A stretch of 64,000 nucleotides of DNA from a virus (taxonomy: Duplodnaviria; Heunggongvirae; Uroviricota; Caudoviricetes), in the IMG/VR virus record IMGVR_UViG_3300032322_001781, one strand, 5' to 3'. Within the stretch, counting starts at the first letter, position 1. Each line of letters starts with the position of its first letter. This document shows, piece after piece, positions 28,934 to 48,964 of this stretch. A program made the translations under genes and the position numbers. A model generated the notes under the pieces. The model saw only the letters and a program-made list of their open reading frames with translations, made no database searches and was not told the origin of the DNA.

Positions 28934-28940
28934 CCAATTA

Positions 28941-28972
28941 TTTGGTAAATTAAAAACTATTATTTACCTTTA
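28941..28972 (+). promoter_or_regulatory. promoter variant (-7 TACCTTTA)
   Basis: tttggtaa-N20-taccttta. Confidence 0.4.
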
Positions 28973-29012
28973 TTAAAATTTTTAAAGATGTTAAAGGAAA
29001 AAATAGTAACCA

Positions 29013-30157: not shown

Positions 30158-31054
30158 ATGAAGCAACTTGTAATAACAAATAGACTTACTAATAGGGAAA
30201 ATGAATCATTCAAACAATATCTTAAAGATATCGCTGAAATTGATGTATTCACTCCAGAGGAAGAAACTATTTGTGCTGAAAAGGCTAGTCAGGGTGATGA
30301 AGAAGCGATAAAAGAATTGGTGAGAAGAAATTTACGTTTTGTAGTATCGGTAGCCAAACAATACGCAACATCTCAAAATCCATTGCAAGACCTTGTGAAT
30401 GAGGGAAACATAGGACTTATTATTGCGGCTGAAAAATTTAACCCAAAAATGGGTTTTAAATTTATTTCTTATGCTGTTTGGTGGGTACGTAAAATAATAA
30501 TGGAACACCTTTCAAAACATGGTCGTTTAGTTAGATTACCAGCAAATAAAATAAATAGTCTATCAAAATTAGATAAAGAAATGTCTGTATTAGAACAGCG
30601 ATTAGGAAGAACAGTAAGCGTTCAAGAAGCCATAGATGTATTAGCCAATTCTGGTAACTATGATTTAGTTTCTTTAAAGAAAAAGAGTGAAGAATATGAA
30701 TTTTTAGATGTTTTATCGTCTTATCATATGGATTCATTAGACCGTGATATAGGTGGTGATGATGGAAACGGAACGTTACTATCAGATACTATTTCAGACG
30801 ACAGCATATTTAAACCTACTGACTATGGTATTAACAATGCTGATGTAAAAAATGAAATAAATAAGTTATTAAACACACTGAAACCTAGGGATAGAAAGGT
30901 CATTGTTGCTTTATTTGGTTTGGATGGAAGTATACCTAGAACACTTAAAGATATTGGTGACGAAATAGGTGTTACACGTGAAATGGTTAGACAAATAAAA
31001 GAAAAATGTTTAACTAAAATGCGTAAAAAAATGGAAAACTCTGAAATAATTTAA
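30158..31054 (+). CDS. RNA polymerase sigma factor, sigma-70 family
   Basis: Region 2 (LRFVVSVAKQY, ISYAVWWVRKII) and region 4.2 HTH (LKDIGDEIGVTREMVRQIKEKCLTKMR). Confidence 0.85.
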   Translation: MKQLVITNRLTNRENESFKQYLKDIAEIDVFTPEEETICAEKASQGDEEAIKELVRRNLRFVVSVAKQYATSQNPLQDLVNEGNIGLIIAAEKFNPKMGFKFISYAVWWVRKIIMEHLSKHGRLVRLPANKINSLSKLDKEMSVLEQRLGRTVSVQEAIDVLANSGNYDLVSLKKKSEEYEFLDVLSSYHMDSLDRDIGGDDGNGTLLSDTISDDSIFKPTDYGINNADVKNEINKLLNTLKPRDRKVIVALFGLDGSIPRTLKDIGDEIGVTREMVRQIKEKCLTKMRKKMENSEII

Positions 31055-34085: not shown

Positions 34086-34379
34086 ATGAAGATAAATAAA
34101 AGTATATTGGATATGTCTGATGTGTATTGTAAACTATCTCATTTTGAAACTATTTGTTTTTTAGATGAATTACTTATTATGCAATATGAGTTAGAAGATT
34201 TATTAGATGAGTTAACAAATGATATGAATAATTCATCATTAATTGTTGAAATTGAAGGGGAAATAGCTTATCTTAAAGAAAACATAAGAGTTGTTGAAAA
34301 CGCTTTATTATGTCATGAATCAAAAATAACAAAAAGGTTCAGTATATCTGGTGAAATTAATTATATTTTTTTTAATTAA
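34086..34379 (+). CDS. hypothetical protein
   Basis: ORF. Confidence 0.4.
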   Translation: MKINKSILDMSDVYCKLSHFETICFLDELLIMQYELEDLLDELTNDMNNSSLIVEIEGEIAYLKENIRVVENALLCHESKITKRFSISGEINYIFFN

Positions 34380-34389
34380 CGTTTTGCAG

Positions 34390-34416
34390 CTATGCGCTCG
34401 TTTTAATGGCGCATAG
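34390..34416. repeat. hairpin with conserved loop TCGTTTTAATG (stem ctatgcgc/gcgcatag)
   Basis: Member of loop-conserved/stem-covarying hairpin family (see 43023, 44621, 44949, 44352). Confidence 0.6.
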
Positions 34417-34470
34417 GTGCTGTTATAAGTAGTTGCGGATTATTAGTAAAAACTTCAAAATAAAAAGAAA

Positions 34471-34680
34471 ATGATAGAAAATTTAAAAGCAAGATTTAAA
34501 GCCCAAAAGTATAATATTTGGACTGAACAGATTGACCCCAAAAGAAAAGCCGATAGTTGGTTTACTGGTTATTGGTATGCAAATGGTAAATTATACTATG
34601 GGCATCCTTTACTCATTTTCTTTTTATCATCACAAAATGATTGGTTTAAAGACAAATGTCCAAACGGAGACAAATGGTAG
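34471..34680 (+). CDS. hypothetical small protein
   Basis: ORF. Confidence 0.3.
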   Translation: MIENLKARFKAQKYNIWTEQIDPKRKADSWFTGYWYANGKLYYGHPLLIFFLSSQNDWFKDKCPNGDKW

Positions 34681-34687
34681 CAATTAC

Positions 34688-34783
34688 TTATAACGGTTGA
34701 GTGTATGAGTAGTGTGGCTTTGCACATACTTTCAACTAACAGATAAACTTATTTAGCCACATTACTTATACACTTTGTTATAG
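34688..34783. mobile_element. MITE-like palindromic element (TATAAC...GTTATA termini, ~30-bp imperfect TIRs)
   Basis: Start ttataacggttgagtgtatgagtagtgtggct vs reverse complement of end acctataacaaagtgtataagtaatgtggct. Confidence 0.55.
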
Positions 34784-35195
34784 GTATGTAAAACAACCGA
34801 TATGAAAAAGAAGATAATAATTTCAATTTTAGGATTATGTTTATTAATGGCAATACACGCTTCAATAAATATTTTCTTATTACATAGAGAAATGGAAAAG
34901 ACTATGATAATGATGCCAATATTTACAATGGTTTATATTGGATACATTCAAATAGTAATAAGAAAATATTTAAAGTTGTAGGTTGTTTTATTACTTATAA
35001 CGTTTTGCGTGTATATGTCAGGTGGCGATTAGAAGCACTACGCTTGATTATACCACAAAAGTTTGATAGAATAACAAATGTTGAATAAACCACAGAACCG
35101 CCACTTGCATATACACGCTGTTAGTTGCAGTTGCGGATATTACCACAGAACTTCAATCGAAGCACTAAGACATTTTTATTCTTTTTGTGCGGTTA

Positions 35196-35474
35196 CTAAA
35201 ATGTATCCATTAATGCACCCCAATTAGGACCGCTTGATACTGGCTCAACCTTTATACTATTAATATCAAGATGTCTAAAATTAGGTGATTTAATATCAAT
35301 AGTATTTAAATGTTTTTCAGCTTCTTCTTTACTATTATATAATAAATCAGTTAAATATAATGTACCACCTCTCGTGTCCTTTCCTATAATCCACCATTTT
35401 TTGCTTTCTTCTTCCTTAATAATCTGTTTTACTAAAGTTCTTAATTCATTTAAAATATTTTTTTTTGTTGCCAT
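35196..35474 (-). CDS. hypothetical protein (only convincing minus-strand gene; divergent from integrase)
   Basis: 92-aa ORF in repeat-dense integrase-proximal region. Confidence 0.45.
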   Translation of the reverse strand: MATKKNILNELRTLVKQIIKEEESKKWWIIGKDTRGGTLYLTDLLYNSKEEAEKHLNTIDIKSPNFRHLDINSIKVEPVSSGPNWGALMDTF

Positions 35475-35671
35475 AATATTTTATATTTACATATAAATAT
35501 GCAGAAAATTTGTTTTTTCAAAATTTTTTTAGTAATTTTGTGGTGTGGGGATAAAAAAAAGAATAAAAATGTTTCCATAAATGTTAAATTGGAAGATGAA
35601 CTTAGCAATTGCAACTAACTATTATATAGATGTACCTTTTTAAAACCAATTAATTATCAATGTTTTAGAAC

Positions 35672-36472
35672 ATGGAAAAAACAAATTATTACGAAATTTG
35701 TAAACAAAAATTGAAGTATTTGAACTATTCAGAAAAGACAATAACAAATTATCTTTTCCATATAAATCAGTTTTTGAATAATTCCAACGTATCTCCAACC
35801 AGATTACAATCCAAGGATTTTCAGTCATATTTGGATAACTATAAATTCAGCTCCACATCTCAACAGAACCAAATAATAAACTCAATTCGTTTTTTATATA
35901 AATTTGGGTTGAATAAGAAATACGACAAGGTTTCTTTCAAGAGACCAAAATCTGAGAAGAAACTACCTAGAGTAATTGATGGTGATTGCATAAAAGAAAG
36001 ATTGAGTAAGATTGAAAATCTAAAACATAAATCAATCCTAACTTTAACATATTCTGTTGGATTGAGAGTCTCTGAGGTTGTAAATTTAAAGATTGATGAT
36101 ATTGATTCCAAAAGAATGTTAATTCACATTAAAAACGCTAAAGGTAGAAAAGATAGAATAGTTCCCTTATCACCAAATGTTCTTAATTTGCTTAGAGAGT
36201 ACTTCAAAGAATATAGACCTTCCGAATATCTTTTTAATGGCCAGTTTTCTTCCCAGTATTCGATAGGTAGTTGCCAGAAAATATATAAGAAATATATTGA
36301 GAACGATGGACATATCCACACTCTTAGACATAGTTGTGCAACCAATCTATTGGAAAAAGGTACTGACCTAAAATTAATCCAGAAGATTTTAGGTCATTCA
36401 AGTGTTAAAACAACTGAAATATATACCCACGTTTCAAATCAATTATTAAGTAAAATTGAACTTCCTGTATAA
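35672..36472 (+). CDS. tyrosine recombinase / phage integrase (XerC/D family)
   Basis: C-terminal catalytic region LRHSCATNLLEKGTDLKLIQKILGHSSVKTTEIYTH (R..H-x-x-R...Y), upstream R (GLRVSE) box. Confidence 0.85.
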   Translation: MEKTNYYEICKQKLKYLNYSEKTITNYLFHINQFLNNSNVSPTRLQSKDFQSYLDNYKFSSTSQQNQIINSIRFLYKFGLNKKYDKVSFKRPKSEKKLPRVIDGDCIKERLSKIENLKHKSILTLTYSVGLRVSEVVNLKIDDIDSKRMLIHIKNAKGRKDRIVPLSPNVLNLLREYFKEYRPSEYLFNGQFSSQYSIGSCQKIYKKYIENDGHIHTLRHSCATNLLEKGTDLKLIQKILGHSSVKTTEIYTHVSNQLLSKIELPV

Positions 36473-36476
36473 TTTA

Positions 36477-36508
36477 TTTGGTAATATCAAATATTCTTCT
36501 TACCTTTG
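36477..36508 (+). promoter_or_regulatory. Bacteroidetes-type promoter
   Basis: TTTGG-N20-TACCTTTG. Confidence 0.6.
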
Positions 36509-36531
36509 TATCCTAATCAAAAACAATAACT

Positions 36532-36942
36532 ATGGAAAACATGACAGAACAAGAAATGGAATTTGAACGTCAAGAACGTGAACACCAAAGACTTGAAAAA
36601 GAAATTCGTGATGCCAAAGAAGTAATTGACACACTCGGAAATTACGTTAACTATAGGAGGTCTAGCAAAGCCTTTGCTGAAGCATTCAAACGTGAGCATC
36701 GCACCCTCCAACAATCAGCCTTTAAAATGTTCTTGGAACTAATGGAAGAAATGGCTACCGAAAACTATCATACAGATGGTCGTAACGAAGATAGCAAGAA
36801 GATGGCTAAAACACTCTTAAAAGGATTTCAACTGGCTAAAAAACAAGAATACATCGAACAAGGTGTCTCAGAACAACGTGCTGAAGAATACGTTACATTG
36901 GGTGATGGTGGCAAACCTAGTAGATATATCCGACATATATAA
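36532..36942 (+). CDS. hypothetical protein
   Basis: ORF. Confidence 0.45.
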   Translation: MENMTEQEMEFERQEREHQRLEKEIRDAKEVIDTLGNYVNYRRSSKAFAEAFKREHRTLQQSAFKMFLELMEEMATENYHTDGRNEDSKKMAKTLLKGFQLAKKQEYIEQGVSEQRAEEYVTLGDGGKPSRYIRHI

Positions 36943-36947
36943 AAAAA

Positions 36948-37289
36948 ATGAATAAAACTTACTTTCGTGTGTGCCACAAAGATTCCCTACAGGGACTTTG
37001 GTATGCTTTTAATGGTGAATTTACTGGACTTATCCATGATAAATTTAAATTCTGTAAAAACACAGAACTGAAAATGGATTTTGATATAGAATTAGTTGGT
37101 TGGCTGTCAGCAGTTGATTCCTTAGAGAAATTATATCATTGGTTTACAGAAGACGATATTCGTAAACTACAAGAACATGGTTGGTTTATCCATGAGTTTG
37201 AAGCTGTGGAAACAAAATTTTATGATAGGTTTCAACATCTAGTTATAAAACAAGATTCTTCACGAGTTATTAACATAATAGAAATTTAA
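36948..37289 (+). CDS. hypothetical protein
   Basis: ORF. Confidence 0.45.
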   Translation: MNKTYFRVCHKDSLQGLWYAFNGEFTGLIHDKFKFCKNTELKMDFDIELVGWLSAVDSLEKLYHWFTEDDIRKLQEHGWFIHEFEAVETKFYDRFQHLVIKQDSSRVINIIEI

Positions 37290-37293
37290 TATT

Positions 37294-37653
37294 TTGACAC
37301 GTATAAATGTTGGGATTCCACCAAAAGAATTAACAAAAAAACACCTCATTGCTGAACATCGTGAGATAAAACGCTTACCTAATTGTGTTTCAAAAGGTAA
37401 ATATAATTTAAAAGGGCAACCAAAAGAATTTACTTTAGGTACTGGTCATGTAAAGTTTTTCTATACTCGGTTAGGTTATCTTAGACAACGATATGAAGAA
37501 TTATACCAAGAATGTGTTGAACGTGGTATAAATGTTCAATATTATGGTAATGCTTGGGATAATGTTCCTGAACATCTAATGGGTAATTATATACCTACAG
37601 AAGAAGATAAACGAATAATAAGAGAACGAATAGCTGAAAGATTAGGAAAATAA
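37294..37653 (+). CDS. denV: pyrimidine dimer DNA glycosylase, T4 endonuclease V homolog
   Basis: Very close to T4 DenV: MTRIN.......L...HL.AE.RE..R........G.......F.LG.GHV.FFY..L.YL..R..EL..EC..RG.N. Confidence 0.85.
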   Translation: MTRINVGIPPKELTKKHLIAEHREIKRLPNCVSKGKYNLKGQPKEFTLGTGHVKFFYTRLGYLRQRYEELYQECVERGINVQYYGNAWDNVPEHLMGNYIPTEEDKRIIRERIAERLGK

Positions 37654-37654
37654 A

Positions 37655-37686
37655 TTTGGTAATCTTAAATTTATTTAATACCTTTG
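37655..37686 (+). promoter_or_regulatory. Bacteroidetes-type promoter
   Basis: TTTGG-N20-TACCTTTG. Confidence 0.6.
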
Positions 37687-37690
37687 CATT

Positions 37691-38071
37691 ATGGAAATAA
37701 ATTTAACACTATACGCTGTTCAAAACGAGAAAGGTCAATTTTTCAGAGCCAAAGGTTATAATGCTTCTGGTAGCACATGGGTTGATGATATAAACAAAGC
37801 CAAAATATATCCTAAGATTGGTGGGGCTAGAGGGACCATAACATGGTTTGCTAACAACTACCCAAAATTTCCAACGCTCAAATTACTTAAACTAACTGTT
37901 AGCAATGTTGAAGAATTGGATGAAACTGAACGTGTAAACAAAGCCAAAGCCAAGAAAAAACGTGAGGAAGCTGAACGTATGAAACGTCAAGCTGAAAGAG
38001 AAATGGAACAAGCCAAAAGACAATTGGCTGAGGCACAGGCAAAAATAAATAAATTGAAAAATAATGGATAA
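37691..38071 (+). CDS. hypothetical protein with KR/E-rich coiled-coil tail
   Basis: ORF. Confidence 0.45.
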   Translation: MEINLTLYAVQNEKGQFFRAKGYNASGSTWVDDINKAKIYPKIGGARGTITWFANNYPKFPTLKLLKLTVSNVEELDETERVNKAKAKKKREEAERMKRQAEREMEQAKRQLAEAQAKINKLKNNG

Positions 38072-38396
38072 ATCACAAATTAAAAAAGGTACGTATGTTC
38101 GTTGGACTGCCGACAGAATGTTTAAATCTTGGGATACTTATGGAATTATTACCAAAGTAACTGATAAAGAAGCCACCATTAAAACCTTTGATGATTTAAA
38201 GGAAACTACTATTTGTATTGAAGGTGAAGCCATGACAGAAGAAGTTAGATGTGTTAGTAAAATAGAAGTTCAAAAGTATATTGATAAAGCTATAATGAAA
38301 CTTAAACATCGTATTGATGAACTTGAACTGGAACATAAGGGGACTATTAGTTCTCTAAATGAGAAGATAAAATTCTTGGAAGAAACTACCTTATAA
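38064..38396 (+). CDS. hypothetical protein
   Basis: ORF. Confidence 0.4.
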   Translation: MDKSQIKKGTYVRWTADRMFKSWDTYGIITKVTDKEATIKTFDDLKETTICIEGEAMTEEVRCVSKIEVQKYIDKAIMKLKHRIDELELEHKGTISSLNEKIKFLEETTL

Positions 38397-38397
38397 A

Positions 38398-38429
38398 TTA
38401 GGTAATGTCAAAATAATTATTTACCTTTG
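38398..38429 (+). promoter_or_regulatory. promoter variant (-33 TTAG, -7 TACCTTTG)
   Basis: ttaggtaa-N20-tacctttg. Confidence 0.45.
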
Positions 38430-38433
38430 CATC

Positions 38434-38832
38434 ATGGATAAACTACAACTATTAGATAAGGTTAAAAATTTACCTAATCTCCAACAATCAGAAAAAGATA
38501 AAATTTTAGGTTGGGTCCAAGCTATGCCTAGTGGAGTAAGTAAAGTAAAACCATCAGTTTATAAAATTGGTGACGTTTTTCTTCACCCAATTTTTTTACA
38601 CCCTTACATCCTGCTTCAAAAAAAAAGAAATGAATGGATTTGTGGGTTACTGACTTCTGAATCAGAATGTAGTGAAATATTAGAACAATGTGAAAGTAGA
38701 TTTTTTGATGTTAATTATTTCACTAAGGTTATTTTTACTGCCAAAGAACCTATAGGTGCTTTTATGGCATCGTATGATAATAACATTCATCTAAAAAAAG
38801 TTTATAAACAACTTAAAGGAATTTTTAATTAA
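38434..38832 (+). CDS. hypothetical protein
   Basis: ORF. Confidence 0.45.
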   Translation: MDKLQLLDKVKNLPNLQQSEKDKILGWVQAMPSGVSKVKPSVYKIGDVFLHPIFLHPYILLQKKRNEWICGLLTSESECSEILEQCESRFFDVNYFTKVIFTAKEPIGAFMASYDNNIHLKKVYKQLKGIFN

Positions 38833-38835
38833 AAT

Positions 38836-39783
38836 TTGGTTTATTTTGGCATTATGAAAAAACAAGAACAAATAGAAGCTAAGAAAAATAAACCAATTGA
38901 AGTTGGTGATTTGGTCAAAGTTTCAACAAATTATTTTAAAACCGTAACCGAAACGGTAAAGGTTGGAAGGAAGAGAGAATTCATTAATAAGGAAGTTGAA
39001 AAAAAATTTACCTTTGAAGGAACTGTTCTAAAAATAGAGAACGATAAATACTATGTTAAGTTAAATAGTAAATCTGTTCCATATGAATTAAACGAAAAAT
39101 TACCTAGTAAACATACGGATAAAAACGAGAAATATTGTATTGCTGATATTTCAATAATTACACCTACTGTTTATGAATGTGGTGCTAATCCGTTCTGTAA
39201 AGAGAAAAGACGTATTTCTTTTTATAACCAAGACATTTGGCAAATTCTATTCAAAGCTGGTTATGGTAAAATAACTGACGACTATTCTAAGCTTGAATCT
39301 ACCGAAGATTTTGGTTACGTAAACTTTAACCCATTCATTATTGATGCTAATGGAAATCGTCAATATTATCAACGTGACCTTGTATGGACACTTGAACAAA
39401 AACAATTACTAATTGACAGCATCTACCAAAATATTGAAATTGGTAAATTTTTATTCCGTTATAATTCTTGGGAAAGAATGCAACTAGAAAAAAAAGAAAC
39501 AGGTGTAGGTCATGGTTGGGATTGTGTTGATGGTAAACAACGATTCTTTGCTATTGTCGAATTTTTACAAAACAAATTCCAAGATAACTATGGTAATTAT
39601 TGGAAAGATTTGAGTGCTAATGCACAGCGTAGATTTCTAAACTTTCCGAATTTATCTTATGGAGAGTTACCAGAAACAGCAAGTGATGAAGATGTTATTG
39701 ATAATTTTTTAACACTTAATTTTACGGGCACACCAATGTCACGTGACCATATTGAGTATGTTAAATCATTTAACATGAAATAA
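38836..39783 (+). CDS. DUF262 (ParB/GmrSD-N-like nuclease domain) protein
   Basis: C-terminal half: YYQRDLVWTLEQKQLLIDSI ... VDGKQRFFAIVEF matches DUF262 FQR..VW...Q...L.DS / DGQQR signature. Confidence 0.6.
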   Translation: MVYFGIMKKQEQIEAKKNKPIEVGDLVKVSTNYFKTVTETVKVGRKREFINKEVEKKFTFEGTVLKIENDKYYVKLNSKSVPYELNEKLPSKHTDKNEKYCIADISIITPTVYECGANPFCKEKRRISFYNQDIWQILFKAGYGKITDDYSKLESTEDFGYVNFNPFIIDANGNRQYYQRDLVWTLEQKQLLIDSIYQNIEIGKFLFRYNSWERMQLEKKETGVGHGWDCVDGKQRFFAIVEFLQNKFQDNYGNYWKDLSANAQRRFLNFPNLSYGELPETASDEDVIDNFLTLNFTGTPMSRDHIEYVKSFNMK

Positions 39784-39784
39784 A

Positions 39785-39816
39785 TTTGGTAATATCAAAT
39801 TTATTTCATACCTTTG
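39785..39816 (+). promoter_or_regulatory. Bacteroidetes-type promoter driving ORF-free structured region
   Basis: TTTGG-N20-TACCTTTG followed by TCACGTTCATTGA. Confidence 0.6.
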
Positions 39817-39821
39817 TATCA

Positions 39822-40080
39822 CGTTCATTGATAAACAACTTTGGCTCGGTAAAGCCTCTTGCGAAAGCAACGTAACCGATGCCGTAGATATTAGGATAGG
39901 GGTTATGCTGGCTGATTACGTTATCTGCCCGATAATGAATGCTCAACCATAAGTTTCCAAACTTCCCCGATTCCTATTAACATGATTAGAGTTTGGAAAC
40001 CGAATACGTGCCAGTATTTGATTAGCGTTTGGTTGGGAAAAGGTAAAATCGGAAAGTGGGGAGGATAGACCTCCCCATAA
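39822..40080 (+). ncRNA. candidate structured ncRNA (~260 nt), unknown family
   Basis: No ORF; higher GC than flanks; internal stems (gtttccaaac...gtttggaaac); ends with GC hairpin ggggag-N-ctcccc. Confidence 0.5.
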
Positions 40081-40102
40081 TCCTTTAAAATTAAAAATTA
40101 AA

Positions 40103-40435
40103 ATGATAAATATGCAAAAAAATCCTACACTGGAGGATATGTTTATAGATAAATTACGTGATATTTTTTCTCTTAAGAAAAAGAAAATTAATGTTGGTGA
40201 TTATGGGGTTTATCAAGATGTATTATCTATAGATACAATAAACGATGGTACACATTCACTTAAATATGACATATACACCAAAGTTAAAGCCGTTGCTATC
40301 TATCAAAATTTGGTTGAAATAGAAATAGTTGAAATATTTACCATAAATTCTTGTAATCAAGATGTTAGGGAATTGATTGAAAAAAACATGCCAAAGTACA
40401 TTCACCCTAAATACATAAGATGGGAGATAAAATAA
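40103..40435 (+). CDS. hypothetical protein
   Basis: ORF. Confidence 0.45.
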   Translation: MINMQKNPTLEDMFIDKLRDIFSLKKKKINVGDYGVYQDVLSIDTINDGTHSLKYDIYTKVKAVAIYQNLVEIEIVEIFTINSCNQDVRELIEKNMPKYIHPKYIRWEIK

Positions 40436-40445
40436 GTTTTTAAAC

Positions 40446-40658
40446 ATGTTAATTCAATTCAAAAAATTAAAGTGTAATATATTTGGTCATTCGTGGCTTT
40501 ACAATTTCCCAGTTATGGCGAATAAAAGAATTTGTAAAACTTGTAATACAAAAATGGTGTTAAACTTAAAAGAAGCTAAGTGGTATGAAATAGATAGCTT
40601 CAACCCAATATTAGGGACTGATAAAGAAATTAAAAAACGTTGGATAAGTTTTAAATAA
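40446..40658 (+). CDS. hypothetical Zn-ribbon-like small protein
   Basis: C..H ... CKTC pattern. Confidence 0.35.
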   Translation: MLIQFKKLKCNIFGHSWLYNFPVMANKRICKTCNTKMVLNLKEAKWYEIDSFNPILGTDKEIKKRWISFK

Positions 40659-40678
40659 AATAATTTTTAAGTGTTACA

Positions 40679-40975
40679 ATGAAAACAAAGCTTTTAAAAA
40701 AACTTCATAAGACATATGATTGGTACTTTAATTCAGATGGGTTTCCAGTACTGATAAATCACGTTAAACAATCTGTTATATTATACGATGTGGAATACTT
40801 ATGCCAAAGAATGAAATATAAGGTGGAAGACCTACCAACGTTGGTAAAAGTTCATCATACCGAATGGGCATTGAGAATGATGAAATTGGATATCCTACAA
40901 GAATATGGCTGGGATATGTCACGTGTCAGATATAAACAAGCTATAAAAAGATTTAAACAAAAAAGAAACAAATAA
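40679..40975 (+). CDS. hypothetical protein
   Basis: ORF. Confidence 0.4.
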   Translation: MKTKLLKKLHKTYDWYFNSDGFPVLINHVKQSVILYDVEYLCQRMKYKVEDLPTLVKVHHTEWALRMMKLDILQEYGWDMSRVRYKQAIKRFKQKRNK

Positions 40976-41007
40976 TTTGGTAAATTCAAAATTTATTCGT
41001 ACCTTTG
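40976..41007 (+). promoter_or_regulatory. Bacteroidetes-type promoter
   Basis: TTTGG-N20-TACCTTTG. Confidence 0.6.
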
Positions 41008-41214
41008 TATCACTAAAATAAAAAAATATGGTATTAAAAACTAGTCTAAAAATTCTAGCTGTTTTGTTCCTTCTCTATGTGAGTTGGTATGTATTCAGTT
41101 TTTTCTCAGCATGGGGTGGAATAGCAATTATTGTTGCTACCCTAATAGGTGTCGGTGTCTACCTAGAAAATGTCATCAAAAATAATTTTAAATAAAAACA
41201 AAAAAAAAACAAAA

Positions 41215-42027
41215 ATGAAAAAAAGCATCCTATCGATTCTTAGCGTAATCACACTAGCAATGTTTATGCAATCATGTGACACCGTACAACCTAACTATGT
41301 TGGTGTACTAATGACAAATTTTGGTAAAAATGGAAAATCAGATTTCGAACTGGTCAAAGGAAGGGTACCCACATATTCGCCAGGGACACAACTCTATCAA
41401 GTGCCTTTGTTTGAACAACGTGCAAATTTTGGTGACCAAACGTTACATTTAAAAGCAGCTGACAATACAGAATTTACAGCAAAACCACTCTACTCTTATC
41501 AAGTAATTGAGGAACGTTCTGTAGACGTAGTATTTCAAAATGCTCGTTTGGGTAGTGGTTCTGAATTCATTAAATCATTAGAAGACAATGTACTTGAACC
41601 ACATATCTATGATATAATTAAAGAAGAAAGCCGTAAATACATTACTGATTCTCTAATGGCTAATGGAGGTTCGTTAAAATTTGAAGAAAGAGTACAAACT
41701 TTGGTTATTAAATCTTTTGAACAAAAGGGTTTGAAATTAATATCTTTTAGTTGTAACCTAGATTTTTCTGCTAAAGTAAAAGAAAAGATTGATAATCGTA
41801 ACGAAGTAAACACCAACTTATCAGTTCTGGACCAACAAATTCAAGAACAAAGAAAAAAGAACGAACTAGCAGAACTCAAAGCACAAGAAAATATCATATT
41901 ATCAAGAGGCTTGACAGATGAAATTTTAAGAAAAACAGCAATTGATGGATGGGTTAAAAATGGTTGCCCAACCCCTCAAGTTGTCGGAAGCGATTCAAAA
42001 ACGTTTTATAACCTTGTTACCAAATAA
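41215..42027 (+). CDS. lipoprotein, possible SPFH/band-7 domain
   Basis: Signal peptide + lipobox (LAMFMQSC); track ORF start 41170 is upstream of likely Met 41215; preceded by unlisted 55-aa membrane ORF 41029..41196. Confidence 0.5.
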   Translation: MKKSILSILSVITLAMFMQSCDTVQPNYVGVLMTNFGKNGKSDFELVKGRVPTYSPGTQLYQVPLFEQRANFGDQTLHLKAADNTEFTAKPLYSYQVIEERSVDVVFQNARLGSGSEFIKSLEDNVLEPHIYDIIKEESRKYITDSLMANGGSLKFEERVQTLVIKSFEQKGLKLISFSCNLDFSAKVKEKIDNRNEVNTNLSVLDQQIQEQRKKNELAELKAQENIILSRGLTDEILRKTAIDGWVKNGCPTPQVVGSDSKTFYNLVTK

Positions 42028-42047
42028 AACAAATATTAAACAAATAA

Positions 42048-42077
42048 AAAACCTTACCAATTGGTGAGGTTTTTTTA
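42048..42077 (+). terminator. rho-independent terminator
   Basis: aaccttacc-aatt-ggtgaggtt + T run. Confidence 0.7.
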
Positions 42078-42086
42078 CTATTTTAA

Positions 42087-42434
42087 ATGGAAATTAAAAA
42101 AATTGATTATGATTTGGTTCAAAAAGAATTTGCTGAATTAAAACCAGATTTATTAGATAATTATGCCACATATTATGGTTGTTTTATTAAAGATGAGTTA
42201 GTTGGCATTGTTTCTTATGTTGAACACCCACATGTGATTTATCTATGTCACGCTTACGTTAAAGATAGTTTTAGAAATAGAGGAATTTACAAATTACTTT
42301 GGAATTACCGAGATTCAAAAATTAAAGAAACGAATAAAATTGTTTATGCTCACTGTAATGTTGATAGTTTAAAATACTTCATAAACAATGGTTACTCAAT
42401 TGAAAAAGCTTTATTTAAAGTAGTTAAAAATTAA
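42087..42434 (+). CDS. GNAT-family acetyltransferase (putative)
   Basis: Motif A-like FRNRGIYKLL after beta-strand VGIVSYV. Confidence 0.5.
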   Translation: MEIKKIDYDLVQKEFAELKPDLLDNYATYYGCFIKDELVGIVSYVEHPHVIYLCHAYVKDSFRNRGIYKLLWNYRDSKIKETNKIVYAHCNVDSLKYFINNGYSIEKALFKVVKN

Positions 42435-42441
42435 AAAAAAA

Positions 42442-42639
42442 ATGGCATTAATTAGAAAGGAAATCTTAGTTGAAGTTAAAGTTGGTGACGTAGTTAAAGC
42501 ACCTAATACGATATATCGTGATGATTTAACACTATATGTTTGTCATATAGAAGATGATTTACTTTACATTTCTGATGAAATTAACACACCTAAAAAAGGG
42601 TGCGAAACATCATTTGTTGAAGATTGTTATTTAGTATAG
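42442..42639 (+). CDS. hypothetical small protein
   Basis: ORF. Confidence 0.35.
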   Translation: MALIRKEILVEVKVGDVVKAPNTIYRDDLTLYVCHIEDDLLYISDEINTPKKGCETSFVEDCYLV

Positions 42640-42660
42640 ACAATAATTTTTGTTTAATTG

Positions 42661-42812
42661 CCTATAACGTTTTGCAGATAGGCGATGTGGCGGATTTTGG
42701 AACACAAAACTTTCTGCAACCACTAAAATTAATTTGAAAACGAAAACTTAATATTAACCGAGAACCCCGCCTTATTGCCTATGTGCTGTTATAGGTAGGG
42801 CTTCTCACAAAT
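42661..42812. mobile_element. MITE-like palindromic element (TATAAC termini)
   Basis: gcctataacgttttgcagataggcgatgtggcgg vs reverse complement of end gccctacctataacagcacataggcaataaggcgg. Confidence 0.5.
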
Positions 42813-42821
42813 TTTTATAAA

Positions 42822-43004
42822 ATGACAAAAGCAGAATTACTCGAAATTATTAAAGATTATCCCGATGATGTGGATTTGGTTTTTACACAGGAAACGGAAA
42901 GACAAGCTGGCGATGTGTCAGATATGTATTTAGACCACTTGACTGAATGCAAGGCGTTCAATTATATCAATCTTTATTTCAAATGGACTGATGTTGGGGA
43001 ATAG
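42822..43004 (+). CDS. hypothetical small protein
   Basis: ORF. Confidence 0.35.
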   Translation: MTKAELLEIIKDYPDDVDLVFTQETERQAGDVSDMYLDHLTECKAFNYINLYFKWTDVGE

Positions 43005-43011
43005 CTTTACC

Positions 43012-43072
43012 TATAACGTCCGATGATAAACAATCGTTTTAATGTTGTTTATCATTTGTTATGTGTAGGTGT
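43012..43072. repeat. 60-nt intergenic repeat copy 1 (contains hairpin gataaacaa-TCGTTTTAATG-ttgtttatc)
   Basis: Near-identical copies at 44610 and 44937, each directly after a small ORF stop. Confidence 0.8.
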
Positions 43073-43103
43073 TTTTTTATTGCGAAAAATAAATATATAA
43101 ATT

Positions 43104-43424
43104 ATGGAAAGAAAAAGAATTAGAAATTTTGAAACATTTACAAATTCATCAATAATTAAAAGGATTAGAAATATTTATTCTAAATTTATGAATATTGAAC
43201 TTTTTGATATGAGTGATAGTAATGACTATGATATTATATGGGAAGGTGGTTTATTAACAGATGAAAAATATAAACAATTCATCAAAAAGTTAGAAGATGA
43301 ATTTGGAATATCAATACTTGATGAAGTATGGAATGATGAAGAAGGTTTCAAAGATTTAACAGATGATAAATATAGAACATTTAATGGGTTAGGAGAATAT
43401 ATTTATTCACAAACGAATTCTTAA
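43104..43424 (+). CDS. hypothetical protein
   Basis: ORF. Confidence 0.4.
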   Translation: MERKRIRNFETFTNSSIIKRIRNIYSKFMNIELFDMSDSNDYDIIWEGGLLTDEKYKQFIKKLEDEFGISILDEVWNDEEGFKDLTDDKYRTFNGLGEYIYSQTNS

Positions 43425-43435
43425 CACTTACACAT

Positions 43436-43563
43436 AACGGCTGACGCTATACGAAGGCAGGGGTTGGATGCACACCCTTTCAGCCTTACACAAATGATAA
43501 ATAGATGCACACCGCTTGTATTAGCAGTAAAGCCCCTGCTTTTGTATAGCGTATGTTATAGGG
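43436..43563. mobile_element. MITE-like palindromic element (TATAAC termini)
   Basis: ataacggctgacgctatacgaaggcagggg vs reverse complement of end ataacatacgctatacaaaagcagggg; overlaps spurious N-terminus of track ORF 43464. Confidence 0.55.
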
Positions 43564-43580
43564 CGTTTATTTTAGTTAAA

Positions 43581-43859
43581 ATGGAAATTAAAAACATACA
43601 CGAACACGCAGGGTGGTTTGCTTCATATATGAATGCTCCCGATGGCGGTAATGATGCACAAGGTGAGGCTCTTGTTAAATGTCAAATCAAAAAAATAAAA
43701 CAGTTGACCGAATTAATAGAAAATATTAAAGGTGAAATAGAACTCACTGACAATCCAAAGGAGTTTTCGGAAAGAACTGTTTTAAATTCAATTAAAGCAA
43801 TGATTGAACAAAAGAAAGAAGTTGAACATACGAGTGGTTATTTTAAGTGGGTTGGCTAA
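43581..43859 (+). CDS. hypothetical protein (start re-assigned to Met 43581)
   Basis: Track ORF 43464..43859 begins inside palindromic repeat; MEIKNIHEH start follows it. Confidence 0.4.
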   Translation: MEIKNIHEHAGWFASYMNAPDGGNDAQGEALVKCQIKKIKQLTELIENIKGEIELTDNPKEFSERTVLNSIKAMIEQKKEVEHTSGYFKWVG

Positions 43860-43910
43860 ATGCCCTATAACGGTCACAGATAAATGTAGTTTTAACAAAA
43901 ACTTAATAAA

Positions 43911-44126
43911 ATGGAAAAAGATAATAACAAAGTTGATAATTGGGATGAATATAATGAAAAATTACATTTATCTGATGTTATGTTTAGTATTTTCACACTT
44001 GATGAAATAAGGACAATTATAAAACATAGACAATTTAGAGGAATGAAAACTCTACAAATGTCAAAAGATAAACAAGATGAGTTTAGAGAAATAATTAAAA
44101 AAATCGAAGATATGTTTGATGTGTAA
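43911..44126 (+). CDS. hypothetical small protein
   Basis: ORF. Confidence 0.35.
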   Translation: MEKDNNKVDNWDEYNEKLHLSDVMFSIFTLDEIRTIIKHRQFRGMKTLQMSKDKQDEFREIIKKIEDMFDV

Positions 44127-44351
44127 AAATATTGAACATAACGGTTGCAAATATATGTTGTTTAATAAAAAATTAAAAATATGTTTATTACATTGAATTA
44201 CATTTGGAATAACTACTGGAAGACAGTAAAGCGAGGAAAACCTAATATGAGAGCATTTTTAATTTTTTTACGAATGCTTGGTTTGGAATTAAAATGTTTA
44301 TTATTAACGGGATATTCAACAGATGAAATACTTAAATAACATATATTTGCT

Positions 44352-44380
44352 GTTATAAAATCGTTTTAATATTTTATAAC
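44352..44380. repeat. hairpin gttataaaa-TCGTTTTAAT-attttataac followed by TATAACGGTTGCAAATAT box
   Basis: Same loop as 34398 and 43032 hairpins with a different stem; TATAACGGTTGCAAATAT also at 44136. Confidence 0.6.
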
Positions 44381-44609
44381 GGTTGCAAATATGAGAAGTA
44401 AAATTTTCCTTTAAAATTTTTTATTTCAAAATTTATTTCTTATATTTGTTGTTATAAATACGTAATTTAAAATACACACAATATGAAAAAAATTAATTCA
44501 ATTTACAAGAAATCAGTTTGAAACAAAACCTTTTGGTGGAATAGTTGGTATATCTATAATCTTAATTTTTTCACTATTAATGATTTTAGGTGTATTTTAA
44601 ATTATTGTT

Positions 44610-44660
44610 TATAACGTCCGATGATAAACAATCGTTTTAATGTTGTTTATCATTTGTTAT
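44610..44660. repeat. 60-nt intergenic repeat copy 2
   Basis: tataacgtccgatgataaacaatcgttttaatgttgtttatcatttgttat. Confidence 0.8.
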
Positions 44661-44726
44661 ACACAGTATTTTTGTGGGAGGGTTGATAAATTAGAAATAA
44701 ATTAGTATATTTGTAAAAAACTGAAT

Positions 44727-44942
44727 ATGGATAATAATAGAAATAAGGTACATTGTTTAGTATATGATTATACTGGTGACACTAATAATGTTTATGTAAG
44801 AGTTTCAAAAGTTCACGAAGTAGATGAAAATGTTTATCTTAAAATACAGAACCCTGTTGTGAATAAAGGGTTACTTCAATATCAACATAAAGATTTATGT
44901 GGTACTGGTTGGGATGAGGGTGAAAAAAAATATTGTGTATAA
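44727..44942 (+). CDS. hypothetical small protein
   Basis: ORF. Confidence 0.35.
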   Translation: MDNNRNKVHCLVYDYTGDTNNVYVRVSKVHEVDENVYLKIQNPVVNKGLLQYQHKDLCGTGWDEGEKKYCV

Positions 44943-44998
44943 CGTCCGATGATAAACAATCGTTTTAATGTTGTTTATCATTTGTTATGTGTAGGTGT
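44937..44998. repeat. 60-nt intergenic repeat copy 3
   Basis: Identical to copy 1 including gtgtaggtg tail. Confidence 0.8.
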
Positions 44999-45225
44999 GG
45001 ATTAATAATAAAAAATATAATAAAATAGAATAAAATGAATGAACAAGAAATGCGTGAATACTTAAAAGGTAAATCTCAAGAAGAAGTTAGGGATTTTATT
45101 ATTGATAGGTTAAAGAAAATCTGTGAAGAAGGTGAAAAATTATCTGTTAATGATGAAGATTACGAAAAGGCTGGTGAATTACTTAAAATTAAAAACAGAT
45201 TAAAGTGATGAATGTAACACTTACA

Positions 45226-45320
45226 CATAACGGTTGGGTGTATGAGAAGGTTTGCTTAGATGAACTTTCAAATTACCACTGAACTTAATAGCAAACTTTC
45301 TTATACACCTTGTTATAACC
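45226..45320. mobile_element. MITE-like palindromic element (TATAAC termini)
   Basis: ataacggttgggtgtatgagaaggtttgct vs reverse complement of end ataacaaggtgtataagaaagtttgct; same architecture as 34688 copy. Confidence 0.55.
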
Positions 45321-45474
45321 AGTACGGATAAATTAGCACTGAACTTGATACGAAGAACGAATAAAAACTTTTTAAAAATGTGCGGTGGAAAACTTGATTA
45401 ATTTAAAAATAAGTAGTATATTTGTAATATCATAATAATAAAATAATAAACTAATAAACTAAAAAATTAAACAA

Positions 45475-46068
45475 ATGGCAAAATTTATTGAAACAATTTA
45501 TCCAACTATTGAAGATAGAGTAAGTAGATGGGAAACAATGGGAATGTTACATATAGTTAAATCTGATGATTCTAAAAAATTGGTAGCGATGGCACTTGAT
45601 GCAACTGCAATATATCTTACAGAATTTAATTTTAAAAATTTTGATAACGATACAAAAACGGTTTTAATACCAGTAATTGTAAGAATTTTCAACGAAACAA
45701 ACAAAGATTTCACATTAGAAACATTAACTAAATCAGTTAGAAGAATAATTGAAGATTTTGTGGAAAAATATGAAGAAGCAAAACCTAAGTTTAACCCATT
45801 AACTTCCGAAAGAGATGATGATGCTGAATTTATTGCGTTATATTGCGAAAACTATTCTTTTGATGAAAACAAAATTAAAATTAAATTTAAAATTACATTT
45901 TGGAAAGATATTCCAGAAAGAACATTTATAATTGATGATACCAACTTCTTTCCAAAATATTTTATGGGGTTGGATGGTATTTTATATGAAAATTATGGAA
46001 CAGAGGAAAAACCAATGTGGGAAAATGTTTTTGATAGTGACTATGAGATTGAAATTGTTAATCTTTAA
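45475..46068 (+). CDS. hypothetical protein
   Basis: ORF. Confidence 0.45.
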   Translation: MAKFIETIYPTIEDRVSRWETMGMLHIVKSDDSKKLVAMALDATAIYLTEFNFKNFDNDTKTVLIPVIVRIFNETNKDFTLETLTKSVRRIIEDFVEKYEEAKPKFNPLTSERDDDAEFIALYCENYSFDENKIKIKFKITFWKDIPERTFIIDDTNFFPKYFMGLDGILYENYGTEEKPMWENVFDSDYEIEIVNL

Positions 46069-46195
46069 GGTGGGAAATTTTTAAAAAGTTTTCCTCACAG
46101 AACTTAAATATGGAACACGAATGTAGTATTGGTTATAACGTAAAAGTATTGGCGATGTTGGGGATTAAAGAGTACAAATGTTTAAATAACAACAA

Positions 46196-46621
46196 ATGAT
46201 AGTAAAAAGCACAAATGTTCAAATTAAGAACGAAAGCCCCAATATTGCCAATGCAGTGTTAGGTGCAGTTACATTCCCGAAGCGTAACACCCGTTTCAAA
46301 TTAAAAGACTTCTTTCAAGTGGAAGTTGATGATTTTCATAGTGGGGAATTTCTATTTTTGTCGGCTAAAAAAGTCAAAACAAAAAGTGATAAAAAGCTAT
46401 TTGATGAAGTAGAAAGTTTTGATGAATATGGATGGATAATAAGCACTTGGTGCTATGACCGTAAATATTACTACAAAATTTTTGTTTGCCAATACCGACA
46501 AAAAGCGTGGAAAAATCATTACCACATTGAAAGTATGTTGGCAGGATTAAACGGGTGTGATGGTTATGCAGTAAATAACACTATTGAGGAATTTGCTGAA
46601 TGGATGGAAGTGTCGCAGTAA
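46196..46621 (+). CDS. hypothetical protein
   Basis: ORF. Confidence 0.45.
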   Translation: MIVKSTNVQIKNESPNIANAVLGAVTFPKRNTRFKLKDFFQVEVDDFHSGEFLFLSAKKVKTKSDKKLFDEVESFDEYGWIISTWCYDRKYYYKIFVCQYRQKAWKNHYHIESMLAGLNGCDGYAVNNTIEEFAEWMEVSQ

Positions 46622-46765
46622 TTGCACCTAACGAGTATATATACACACCTATAGTCTAACCCATTTAAAATCAATATTTTGAACCAAAAAATTATAAAGA
46701 TTTGTGAACAAAAGTTTATATATTTAAACTAATCAGATAAGAGTATTAGGTTATATGCTTCTTAC

Positions 46766-46796
46766 TTTGAAATATCAAAATTTATTCGTACCTTTA
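46766..46796 (+). promoter_or_regulatory. promoter variant (-7 TACCTTTA)
   Basis: TTTG-N19-TACCTTTA. Confidence 0.4.
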
Positions 46797-46807
46797 TAAA
46801 AAACAAA

Positions 46808-47407
46808 ATGAAAATTAATTTTACAGAATCCTTTTCTAAATCATTAAAAACTTTATACTGGCAAAATACTCTTCCTTATAAAGTATATTCTTTTTTCAGA
46901 TATGATTTACCTAGATTTCTAAAAAACATTTGGAAATTTAGGAAAGCATTGTATAACCATTATTGGTTTGACCATCACGGAATTCTTATGTTTATGGAAA
47001 TAGGGTTAACTGACATAGCTAATAATATTGAAAAACATGGAATTGAAGTGGAAAGCTCTAGAATGAAAAAAGTTGAAAAAATGCGTAGAGTCATTCAATT
47101 TATTAAAAATTATAATGAGGACTTATATATTGAAATGGCTGAAAAAGAATTAGGTGAATTGATATTACATAAATTGGAATTTGAACCCGCTCCTGATTAT
47201 CCAAGCAGTTATCAGTTAGTTGATAAAGATACTCCTGAAGAAAAAGAACATAATAATAAAGTGTATACTAGAGCGAGAGAATTTGGAGAACAAGAATGGG
47301 CTGAATTGTGGAATATCATTAAAGGACAAGACTACTCAAAATTTGACGAAAATATTGATTTTGATAATCAATTTGATGGTTCAGGATTAAGAGGTTGGTG
47401 GGATTAA
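46808..47407 (+). CDS. hypothetical protein
   Basis: ORF. Confidence 0.45.
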   Translation: MKINFTESFSKSLKTLYWQNTLPYKVYSFFRYDLPRFLKNIWKFRKALYNHYWFDHHGILMFMEIGLTDIANNIEKHGIEVESSRMKKVEKMRRVIQFIKNYNEDLYIEMAEKELGELILHKLEFEPAPDYPSSYQLVDKDTPEEKEHNNKVYTRAREFGEQEWAELWNIIKGQDYSKFDENIDFDNQFDGSGLRGWWD

Positions 47408-48895: not shown

Positions 48896-48964
48896 AGTAG
48901 AATCGTCTAATTGGTAGGGCGCATCAGGAAAGGTGAAATTTAGGTTCGACTCCTAGTTCTACTA
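48896..48964 (+). tRNA. tRNA-like element (short, ~69 nt) with T-arm ttagg-ttcgact-cctag and D-loop-like aattggtag
   Basis: Perfect 7-bp acceptor agtagaa/ttctact, D-stem gtct/gggc, but no canonical anticodon arm (loop ggaaagg lacks U33). Confidence 0.35.

Follow-up and report, generated by a model that had tools for sequence, protein, structure and literature searches.

Integrons have been viewed as bacterial devices, and the ability of their integrases to recombine folded single-stranded attC sites has been linked to an acquired insertion, the I2 helix (PMC4792948, PMC7790495). A previous study showed that IntI1 recombined five of six phage-borne sites delivered in single-stranded form, and that attC bottom strands were more active than top strands (PMC9892861). 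Searches of the full-text literature returned integrons, a few clusters of attC sites lacking integron integrases (CALINs) in phages (PMC9892861) and the promoter early stem-loops (PeSLs) of T4-type phages; we found in it no account of a system that combines recombinase, hairpin site and terminal site, of mirrored gene polarity, of the polymorphism in Freya phages described below, or of prevalence in Bacteroidota phages. Here, we describe a 64,000-nucleotide stretch of viral DNA (IMG/VR record IMGVR_UViG_3300032322_001781, Caudoviricetes), called the window below, in which palindromic elements alternate with small open reading frames (ORFs). These elements are probably attC-like recombination sites of an integron-like gene-cassette platform in a large Flavobacterium-type phage. 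The window and related loci share a site grammar, paired cassette ends, breakpoints precise to the core and a conserved terminal site, and whole units are gained and lost among isolates of the Polaribacter phage Freya.

A purpose-built detector (AACG…GTTA around an adjacent stem) called 13 hairpin elements on the + strand of the window (E1 to E13) and none on the - strand; two non-hairpin terminal half-sites are also present on the + strand. They form two arrays (array 1, 34369-35629; array 2, 42657-46645), and in both of them small ORF and element alternate strictly. The initial annotation had reported at least five copies, an under-count. Its four full copies were all recovered as E2, E4, E6 and E12, and its 'partial copies' at 44136 and 44378 are real sites, not partial ones, being the 5' ends of the complete elements E8 and E9. 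Inverted-repeat structure beyond chance in this AT-rich DNA (GC 30%) was borne out as well, since ATAACG enrichment and reversed-sequence controls exclude chance. Thirteen of the 23 ATAACG words on the + strand of the 64 kb fall inside 34.6-46.2 kb, ATAACG-N20-50-TGTTAT occurs four times in the window (0.51 expected), and over 2.0 Mb of related loci the detector made 651 calls on the recombinase strand, 179 on the opposite strand and 92 in reversed-sequence controls.

The site profile was built by core-anchored alignment from 531 non-identical elements, taken from the window and from related loci. The detector itself demands AAC and GTT, but not the conserved positions around them. The consensus is 5' ATTRCNYATAAC-G-K-T-T-G…(TAT)…stem-loop…(A-T at -16/-15, T-A at -8/-7)…T-GTTAT-R-N-G-Y-A-G-T 3', giving an element grammar of 5' ATTRCNYATAAC-GKTTG-stem…stem-T-GTTATRNGYAGT 3'. 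The outer boxes ATTRCNYATAAC/GTTATRNGYAGT are 12 nt long and mutually complementary save for one fixed T·G wobble (T at 5' -8 in 96%, G at 3' +10 in 70%). The internal loop is asymmetric, its 5' side (GKTTG) being about 3 nt longer than its 3' side, and the inner stem opens with a second, related box. The spacing of the 3' half is that of a canonical two-arm recombinase site (10-8-10 or 11-6-11), and the 5' half has the same two arms about 3 nt wider apart. Dyad identity of the 3' half is 0.43 (background 0.29), and E. coli dif, which may be unlike the dif of the host, scores no better than shuffled sequences; a likeness of the 3' half to E. coli dif, seen by eye, was given up as a sequence claim after this profile test, and the geometry alone was retained. 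Elements are 43 to 314 nt long (median 85). A short class keeps the apical loop TCGTTTTAATG in 52 of 66 distinct hairpins, the stems varying by compensatory changes, and this loop is conserved, with co-varying stems, between freshwater jumbo-phage contigs and a marine Polaribacter phage; such conservation suggests that the loop has a binding or structural role of its own. It stands at 34398, 43034, 44632 and 44960 in the window and at 30026-30036 and 30926-30936 in Polaribacter phage P12002L (L251).

The ends of the ORF segments match each other rather than the hairpins they flank. For two consecutive elements, k and k+1, with an ORF between them, the stretch that follows GTTAT in k reads as the reverse complement of the one that precedes ATAAC in k+1, and it shows no complementarity to the 5' flank of k itself. 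Flanks were scored from the core outwards (global alignment over 24 nt diluted the signal); all 11 consecutive pairs of the window score between 7 and 16, as against averages of 1.3 for own flanks and 1.4 for other pairs, and the observed pair mean was reached in none of 20,000 permutations. Among 401 non-redundant segments of other loci, next-element pairs score 6.8 versus 0.9 for own flanks and 1.0 for others, 71% of the segments lie above the 95th percentile of shuffled partners, and pairing continues for a median of 10 nt past the shared pentamer. The outer-box halves belong to the ORF segment, and both ends of a cassette therefore pair together. Integron cassettes have this property, the neighbouring cassette owning the outer portion of the core site; if the palindromes were inserted as self-contained units, or were hairpins acting locally in RNA, it would have no explanation. 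A search for upstream partners of the 5' arms in E1 and E4, the first sites of the two arrays, found none; the left ends of both arrays appear to be backbone.

The arrays are hypervariable, with 570 ORF segments falling into 411 families and 760 hairpins into 244. The unit made of E10 (44604-44667) and ORF 44727-44942 is 97-99% identical in three other contigs, where homology stops exactly at …TATAAC^G (the caret marks the breakpoint, here and below) and each contig then enters a different hairpin. For 18 pairs of homologous segments with differing downstream hairpins, identity stays at about 1.0 up to and including AACG and is 0.22 one base further on; for six pairs with differing upstream hairpins, it is 1.0 from TTGTT onward. 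The idea of recombinogenic intergenic palindromes that shape a hyperplastic region, put forward in the initial annotation, was right in spirit, as the arrays are hypervariable and exchange occurs at the palindrome cores. E4 (42657-42799) is 86% identical to an intergenic element 3' of a DNA methyltransferase gene in the unrelated Flavobacterium phage hattifnatt9-1, a siphovirus of 39 kb, and a blastn search of E2 against phage genomes returned no match.

Of 80 viral loci with a recombinase 59-81% identical to that of the window, nearly all carry a same-strand array that ends just upstream of the recombinase gene, and almost no elements lie downstream of it. Alignment of the upstream regions revealed a conserved terminal site that is not a hairpin, namely a variable arm (ATTG…T) followed by AAC^TA(T/G)NATATAT…, located 51-52 nt ahead of the start codon in most distinct sites; its right arm is constant and its left arms differ in 32 of 33. 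The terminal, attI-like site of array 1 (35608-35650, +) reads ATTGCAACTAAC^TATTATATAGATGTACC.., with the core ATTGCAACTAAC^TATTATATAG at 35608-35629, and its AAC ends 52 nt before the ATG of the recombinase gene. Its left arm is the reverse complement, usual wobble included, of the 3' box GTTAGTTGCAGT of E3 (34990-35131), the final hairpin of array 1, and array 1 therefore extends to the terminal site and includes the segment with an ORF of 92 amino acids. The terminal site of array 2 (46621-46660, +) reads ATTGCACCTAAC^GAGTATATATACACACC.., with the core ATTGCACCTAAC^GAGTATATATAC at 46621-46645, and its left arm is likewise the reverse complement, with a T.G wobble, of the 3' box GTTAGGTGCAGT of E13 (46128-46269), the last hairpin of array 2, which had been overlooked in the initial annotation. 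The left arm TAGCAATTGCAACTAAC is identical in locus L070 and the window (35603-35619), although their recombinases share no more than 65% identity; diverged platforms may thus have one last cassette end in common.

The tyrosine recombinase beside array 1 (35672-36472, +; 266 amino acids) is Xer/IntI-like and has the complete set of catalytic residues (R…K…HxxR…H…Y). The initial annotation had placed an integrase at 34.4-35.2 kb, which is array 1 itself. The best matches of the protein are XerA, XerC and XerD, and the alignment with archaeal XerA runs from end to end. In the alignment with VchIntIA, a stretch of 31 residues stands opposite 79 of the integrase, and the IntI-specific insertion (the I2 helix region, roughly 48 residues) is missing; the TIGR02249/intI models gave 159.6 bits, short of the cut-off of 265, and the protein stayed under every cut-off of the curated NCBIfam models.

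Distant homologues of the recombinase (33-42% identity) are encoded by the Polaribacter phages Freya and Leef and the Cellulophaga phage Ingeline, that of Freya being 38% identical to the one in the window. Leef and Ingeline have two integrases each, a classical one in the lysogeny module and the small recombinase homologue (regions 17391-17864 and 28136-28999 in Leef_1, L165; 11729-12925 and 21703-22494 in Ingeline_1, L163), and small same-strand ORFs precede the latter gene in both. An element with a variant outer box (…CCAAC…GTTAG…) lies directly upstream of the recombinase gene (33-38% identical products) in Freya and Leef; near the small recombinase gene of Ingeline, neither detector found hairpin sites.

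Ten Freya isolates are 99-100% identical, and the recombinase region was compared in five of them. The regional differences are confined to the stretch immediately upstream of the recombinase gene, where the number of additional genes ranges from zero to 12 and the point of insertion is precisely …AAC^ in the terminal site. Freya_1 has the empty site, …ATTGTTTACAAC^ACCCCTATAAC… followed after 44 nt by ATG. Freya_10 starts from the same left arm, continues at the left junction with ^GGATATGG… into a hairpin and then 4.9 kb with 12 small genes, and returns at the right junction, the array end, through …ATTGTTGCTAAC^ACCCCTATAAC…. The arrays of Freya_5 and Freya_9 (both …AAC^ACCCC…) end at internal AAC^ of Freya_10, at positions 902 and 3793, respectively, and Freya_6 (…AAC^ACCCC…) has two different units beyond position 902. 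All junctions consist of an outer arm ending in AAC^ joined to the constant arm ACCCCTATAAC, and five array states are seen; the arrays are nested, with the variation at the recombinase-proximal end. The gained or lost units are whole hairpins with their ORF or ORFs, not the palindrome alone. Such a pattern would be expected if a platform site recombined with hairpin sites at their 5' cores. It went unmentioned when these phages were first described. The GenBank record of Freya_8 (L168) begins exactly at the base following an internal AAC^ of Freya_10 (position 903), and this genome is 902 bp shorter.

The two strands of the sites are not equivalent. With all mismatch types scored equally, stems hold 891 G·T versus 177 A·C mismatches, and outer boxes without the invariant wobble hold 51 versus 10; the + strand folds more stably in 13 of 13 window elements with DNA parameters and in 12 of 13 with RNA parameters. 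Given this strand asymmetry, the + strand is under selection in a form that is single-stranded. Cassette ORFs are co-oriented with the better-folding strand in 262 cases and reversed in three, and they point towards the recombinase gene. Their stop codons adjoin the 5' box, preceding the C of AAC by a median of 14 nt; in 63 cases the stop codon overlaps TAA within ATAAC. The hairpin segments are non-coding, with 10 forward and nine reverse chance ORFs as compared with 262 coding ORF segments. ORF starts inside the upstream hairpin (120 of 380) are partly an artefact of choosing the longest ORF, and they were not used as evidence.

Arrays of the same grammar are present in the early regions of small virulent Flavobacterium siphoviruses. 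In phage hemulen6-1 there are 12 sites, and a site stands behind every methyltransferase gene; Polaribacter phage P12002L has at least nine. The P12002L_attC1 of Qi et al. 2023, a site that HattCI did detect, is a member of the family with the TCGTTTTAATG loop; their 'attC2' occurs twice, and its gene strand reads ATTGTG..TAAC^AACGGATAAAAC…, which identifies it as a terminal site. IntI1 recombined P12002L attC2 with crossover at G^TT, and it also recombined sites of the Pseudoalteromonas phage PH101, whose cores are TATAACG..TTGTTATA (PMC9892861). For P12002L that study reported only two sites, and it described neither a recombinase nor a terminal site nor polymorphism within populations (PMC9892861). 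Several sites were found in an uncultured phage of 462 kb, and two uncultured phages of ~635 kb have weaker matches to the 52-nt hairpin (80-89% identity).

Recombinases in bacterial genomes are merely 40-51% identical to that of the window, and several short ones adjoin arrays of the same grammar, flank signature and wobble included. Examples are Desulfitobacterium sp. Sab5 (chromosome NZ_CP172056.1, 2382499-2403296, L188), an Aequorivita metagenome-assembled genome (MAG), another Bacteroidetes MAG, Ekhidna and a Flavobacteriaceae isolate, and the arrays lie downstream of the recombinase gene on the opposite strand. In five bacterial loci (L188, L212, L219, L244 and L228), sites are 64-226 nt long, e.g., ..ATAACGTCCCGAGG..CCTCTGTTATA.., and the recombinases are 42-46% identical. 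The grammar recurs in small virulent Flavobacteriia phages and in some bacterial chromosomes, a search of relatives and hosts for the consensus having been proposed in the initial annotation. As for cargo, eight larger cassette proteins from other loci were scanned, of which DNA methyltransferases (C5 and N6/N4) make up four and an RNA ligase one, and hemulen and P12002L cassettes carry methyltransferase and Mom-like genes. This cargo of orphan DNA methyltransferases, RNA ligase and tiny ORFs suggests a rapidly exchangeable pool of accessory or anti-defence genes.

We propose a platform of four components, including attC-like hairpin sites, cassettes that own the outer-box halves, an attI-like terminal site and a short Xer/IntI-like recombinase. 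A cassette is usually one small co-oriented ORF between two sites, and exchange falls inside the invariant AAC (mostly) or GTT; each array closes with a non-palindromic terminal site made of a cassette arm, AAC^ and the constant arm. The short recombinase is the presumed catalyst, and its likely substrate is the folded + (coding) strand, which would be cleaved in the 5' AAC in the way a folded attC bottom strand is. The partner in the exchange may be the duplex terminal site or another hairpin, reached through circular cassettes, and resolution would be replicative.

Several observations weigh against this proposal. The small virulent phages hemulen6-1 and P12002L hold full arrays and no such recombinase, and array 2 of the window has no adjoining recombinase gene; it is therefore possible that another enzyme acts or that exchange is driven by homology, and the catalyst could be a host Xer protein or the enzyme of another phage. 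The recombinase lacks the I2 insertion that integrases are thought to need for folded attC sites (PMC7790495), and IntI1 did not recombine P12002L_attC1, the sole hairpin-type member of the family tested (PMC9892861). Exchange takes place at both cores (AAC mostly, or GTT), unlike in integrons. The adjacency of array and recombinase gene could be inherited synteny in the jumbo-phage clade, and the G·T bias fits a role at the RNA level equally, so that it does not separate single-stranded DNA from RNA. A strict search for clean single-cassette indels between IMG/VR arrays found none; in a relaxed, multi-cassette view many indels are bounded by identical 52-nt hairpins, where simple homologous deletion is possible, and such indels do not discriminate between mechanisms. 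Finally, no empty/filled polymorphism was found for the lineage of the window, an exact 24-mer of its terminal arm being unmatched in IMG/VR and JGI metagenomes.

Alternatively, the hairpins might be PeSL-like regulatory or RNA-level signals, such as 3'-end stabilisers or endoribonuclease sites, which double as homology islands for general phage recombination by annealing of the NinB/RecT/Erf type or template switching, with no site-specific enzyme. We consider this unlikely. Processing signals between small early genes do exist, as exemplified by the RNase III sites of T7. The co-orientation of elements with genes in tight intergenic gaps, the sense-strand excess of G·T over A·C expected of RNA structure, the arrays in phages without the recombinase that have NinB or RecT, the many indels flanked by identical 52-nt hairpins and the precedent of the PeSLs themselves (PMC2839356, PMC4122927) would all agree with such signals, but a local RNA hairpin cannot motivate complementarity of 10-20 nt between the ends of ORF segments, nor is razor-sharp exchange expected between sites with about 6-12 nt in common. 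All Freya events occur at the single terminal site beside the recombinase gene; that site is not a hairpin, yet it keeps a fixed, conserved distance from the recombinase start, and tyrosine-recombinase sites have this same two-box geometry, in which the spacers are unequal. The signatures of known RNA signals are missing, too. None of the window elements has a terminator signature (GC-rich stem with T-run), and of seven terminator-like matches none is a whole element, one falling inside E6; promoter signatures match the elements at chance level only. Rfam at gathering threshold reported only tRNAs in the window, and a sensitive Rfam scan of array 2 gave nothing at E<=1. An intrinsic-terminator identity was consequently rejected for want of a terminator tail, and a known RNA family or ribozyme was dropped as a candidate. 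The T4 PeSL analogy drawn in the initial annotation holds for the outcome, a modular shuffling of small ORFs, and fails for the promoter/terminator composite and for the homology mechanism.

Another explanation, which we regard as quite improbable, is hijacking of the host Xer system in the manner of integrative mobile elements exploiting Xer (IMEX) or pdif modules. The sites would then be substrates of host XerC/D or any Xer-like enzyme, the main task of the phage recombinase the resolution of genome dimers at the terminal site, and the cassettes passengers that exploit it. It draws on the best matches of the recombinase (XerA/XerC/XerD), the 11-6-11-like geometry of the 3' half, the persistence of arrays in recombinase-free phages, the second, classical lysogeny integrase of Ingeline and Leef, and the Xer-dependent integration of single-stranded DNA phages proposed in Flavobacterium and Bacteroidetes (PMC9719478, PMC3091885). 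Set against these are the lack of significant similarity to E. coli dif, which may differ from the Flavobacterium dif, the restriction of genes to just one of two alternating segment types, unlike in pdif modules, and the palindromic pairing with its 3-nt asymmetry, which duplex Xer sites do not need. A pdif-like symmetry, in which both segment types would be modules, was rejected on the ground that the hairpin segments are non-coding. Host-Xer hijacking overlaps with the integron-like platform, the difference being mainly the acting enzyme. The family had initially been described as resembling miniature inverted-repeat transposable elements (MITEs), and terminal inverted repeats starting with TATAAC, multiple copies and clustering do invite a reading as MITE or transposon-derived palindromes that insert autonomously. 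This is contradicted, and its probability is negligible: flanking direct repeats are 0-2 nt in all 13 window elements, which leaves no target-site duplication; neither a transposase nor a homing endonuclease lies in or near the arrays; the interiors form 244 families with compensatory changes and are not copies of one element; the orientation is strictly one; the flanks of an element are unrelated, whereas those of the ORF segment pair; and the unit that is inserted is hairpin plus ORF.

Coming back to the cassette platform of the window, the features of both arrays lie on the + strand unless stated. Array 1 starts with E1 (34369-34433), a short hairpin site with the 5' box variant ..TTAATTAAC and the loop TCGTTTTAATG. 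A cassette ORF of 69 amino acids (34471-34680), whose segment ends are mutually complementary, separates it from E2 (34683-34788, formerly 34688-34783), and a membrane-like ORF of 59 amino acids (34802-34981) lies between E2 and E3. The last segment (35120-35619) contains the ORF of 92 amino acids on the - strand (35196-35474), a rare reverse-oriented cargo with no family match.

Array 2 starts with E4 and continues with E5 (43006-43069), a short hairpin site with the loop TCGTTTTAATG that is the same 52-nt hairpin, identical, as E10 and E11 (44932-44995). E6 (43427-43566) overlaps the N-terminus of a predicted TTG-start ORF (43464-43859), as had been noticed, and the likely start is the ATG at 43581; the extended 5' flank earlier seen to be common to two copies is AACACTTACACATAACGG, found in E6 and E12 (45220-45323, formerly 45226-45320). 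The loop of E7 (43860-43988) contains the start of ORF 43911-44126, and that of the long site E8 (44131-44363) encloses an ORF of 52 amino acids (44181-44339). A 23-nt 'empty' segment, TTATAAAATCGTTTTAATATTTTATAA (44352-44380), separates E8 from E9 (44369-44462); it recurs in six hairpin contexts in other contigs, and it may represent either a cassette without cargo or the scar of a deletion. The TATAAC of E11 contains the stop codon of ORF 44727-44942. The cassette ORFs of array 2 (42822-43004, 43104-43424, 43581-43859, 43911-44126, 44727-44942, 45035-45208, 45475-46068 and 46196-46621) have no family matches, and searches of the window cassette ORFs against PHROGs and Pfam yielded essentially no annotation for these small proteins. 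Only two cassettes, both in array 2, have their own Bacteroidota-type promoter (44674-44716 and 45385-45427), and these promoters lie outside the hairpin elements.

The closest relatives of the window, viral contigs in IMG/VR, reach lengths of about 280 kb, so that its source looks like a large Flavobacterium-type phage; a tRNA cluster, repeated Bacteroidota-type promoters (families D1/D3) and numerous small ORFs are among its features. The promoter-like motif, about 45 nt (TTGGTAAT..N..TACCTTTGTAT), is repeated upstream of genes (36470-36529, 37648-37707, 38391-38432, 39778-39837, 40969-41028, 45394-45445 and 46766-46817) and fits the Bacteroidota -33/-7 promoter type; it looks like a phage promoter family separate from the cassette sites. 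Seven tRNA genes are clustered at the left end (62-2563), one of which, of 112 nt (2452-2563), may hold an intron or a long variable arm, and an isolated tRNA gene is found at 48896-48964. An ORF of 148 amino acids (29699-30145) resembles, as judged by eye, the SsrA-binding protein SmpB and is directly followed by a sigma-70-like ORF of 298 amino acids (30158-31054); Rfam reported no tmRNA in the window. A textbook intrinsic terminator (42046-42075, 13-bp stem with T-run) lies upstream of a GNAT-like ORF (42087-42434), which stands before array 2.

In these virulent, jumbo and huge phage genomes the logic of the integron is complete, yet the recombinase has no I2 insertion. If this recombinase is the catalyst, the system would offer a testable case of attC-type recombination working, or arising, without I2, and a mechanism for the 'hyperplastic' small-ORF regions of phages. 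It would account for the passage of orphan methyltransferases and counter-defence genes between unrelated phages, and the few phage CALINs on record would be reinterpreted as pieces broken from a far larger system native to phages; the grammar of the sites, together with the terminal site, would allow cassettes to be delimited and mined in viral metagenomes. We see as much reason to accept as to doubt the broader proposition, namely that a widespread integron-like system on a short Xer-like recombinase without I2 and with mirrored gene polarity, either sister or ancestral to integrons or an independent reinvention, is a principal driver of the flux of accessory and anti-defence genes among Bacteroidota phages, from virulent siphoviruses of 38 kb to huge phages of >400 kb, and is also present, next to homologous recombinases, in chromosomes of several bacterial phyla.

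Among known systems, the PeSLs of T4-type phages are similar in that small novel ORFs in hyperplastic regions of large phages are flanked by repeated stem-loop motifs, at which indels and replacements between relatives have their boundaries (PMC2839356, PMC4122927). They are composites of early promoter and terminator thought to recombine by homology, whereas the elements described here have neither signature and show two-box geometry, cassette-specific paired ends, a terminal site and an adjoining tyrosine recombinase. The attP(+) of CTX-phi is likewise served by a recombinase of the Xer family, and a single strand, once folded, could resemble a two-arm duplex site whose centre is irregular, as it does there; the pdif modules of Acinetobacter are similar as discrete modules bounded by alternately oriented sites. 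In contrast to CTX-phi, IMEX and pdif, there is no detectable similarity to dif (E. coli dif, which may not be that of the host), cargo resides in the ORF segments alone, the recombinase is phage-encoded, and arrays of many cassettes stand at one platform site.

Integrons are similar in several respects. The palindromes are imperfect and variable in length and sequence, with invariant AAC...GTT and two simple sites of unequal spacing; crossover falls in the core, and the outer box half is owned by the neighbouring cassette. Cassettes are mostly promoterless single ORFs, a non-palindromic platform site lies by a tyrosine recombinase gene, with units added and lost there (the states seen in Freya), and one strand folds better, the likely place of cleavage being the 5' AAC of that strand, as in the attC bottom strand. 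There are differences as well. The phage recombinase (266 amino acids) lacks the IntI insertion of roughly 48 residues and stays under integron-integrase cut-offs. Phage ORFs are on the strand favoured for folding and are transcribed towards the recombinase gene, while those of integrons are on the opposite strand and are transcribed away from intI, from Pc. The phage outer box has 12+ bp with a fixed T.G wobble as compared with 7 bp, the asymmetry of the phage site is a 3-nt bulge in the central region, exchange proceeds at both cores, and the genomes that host the system are those of virulent, jumbo and huge phages.

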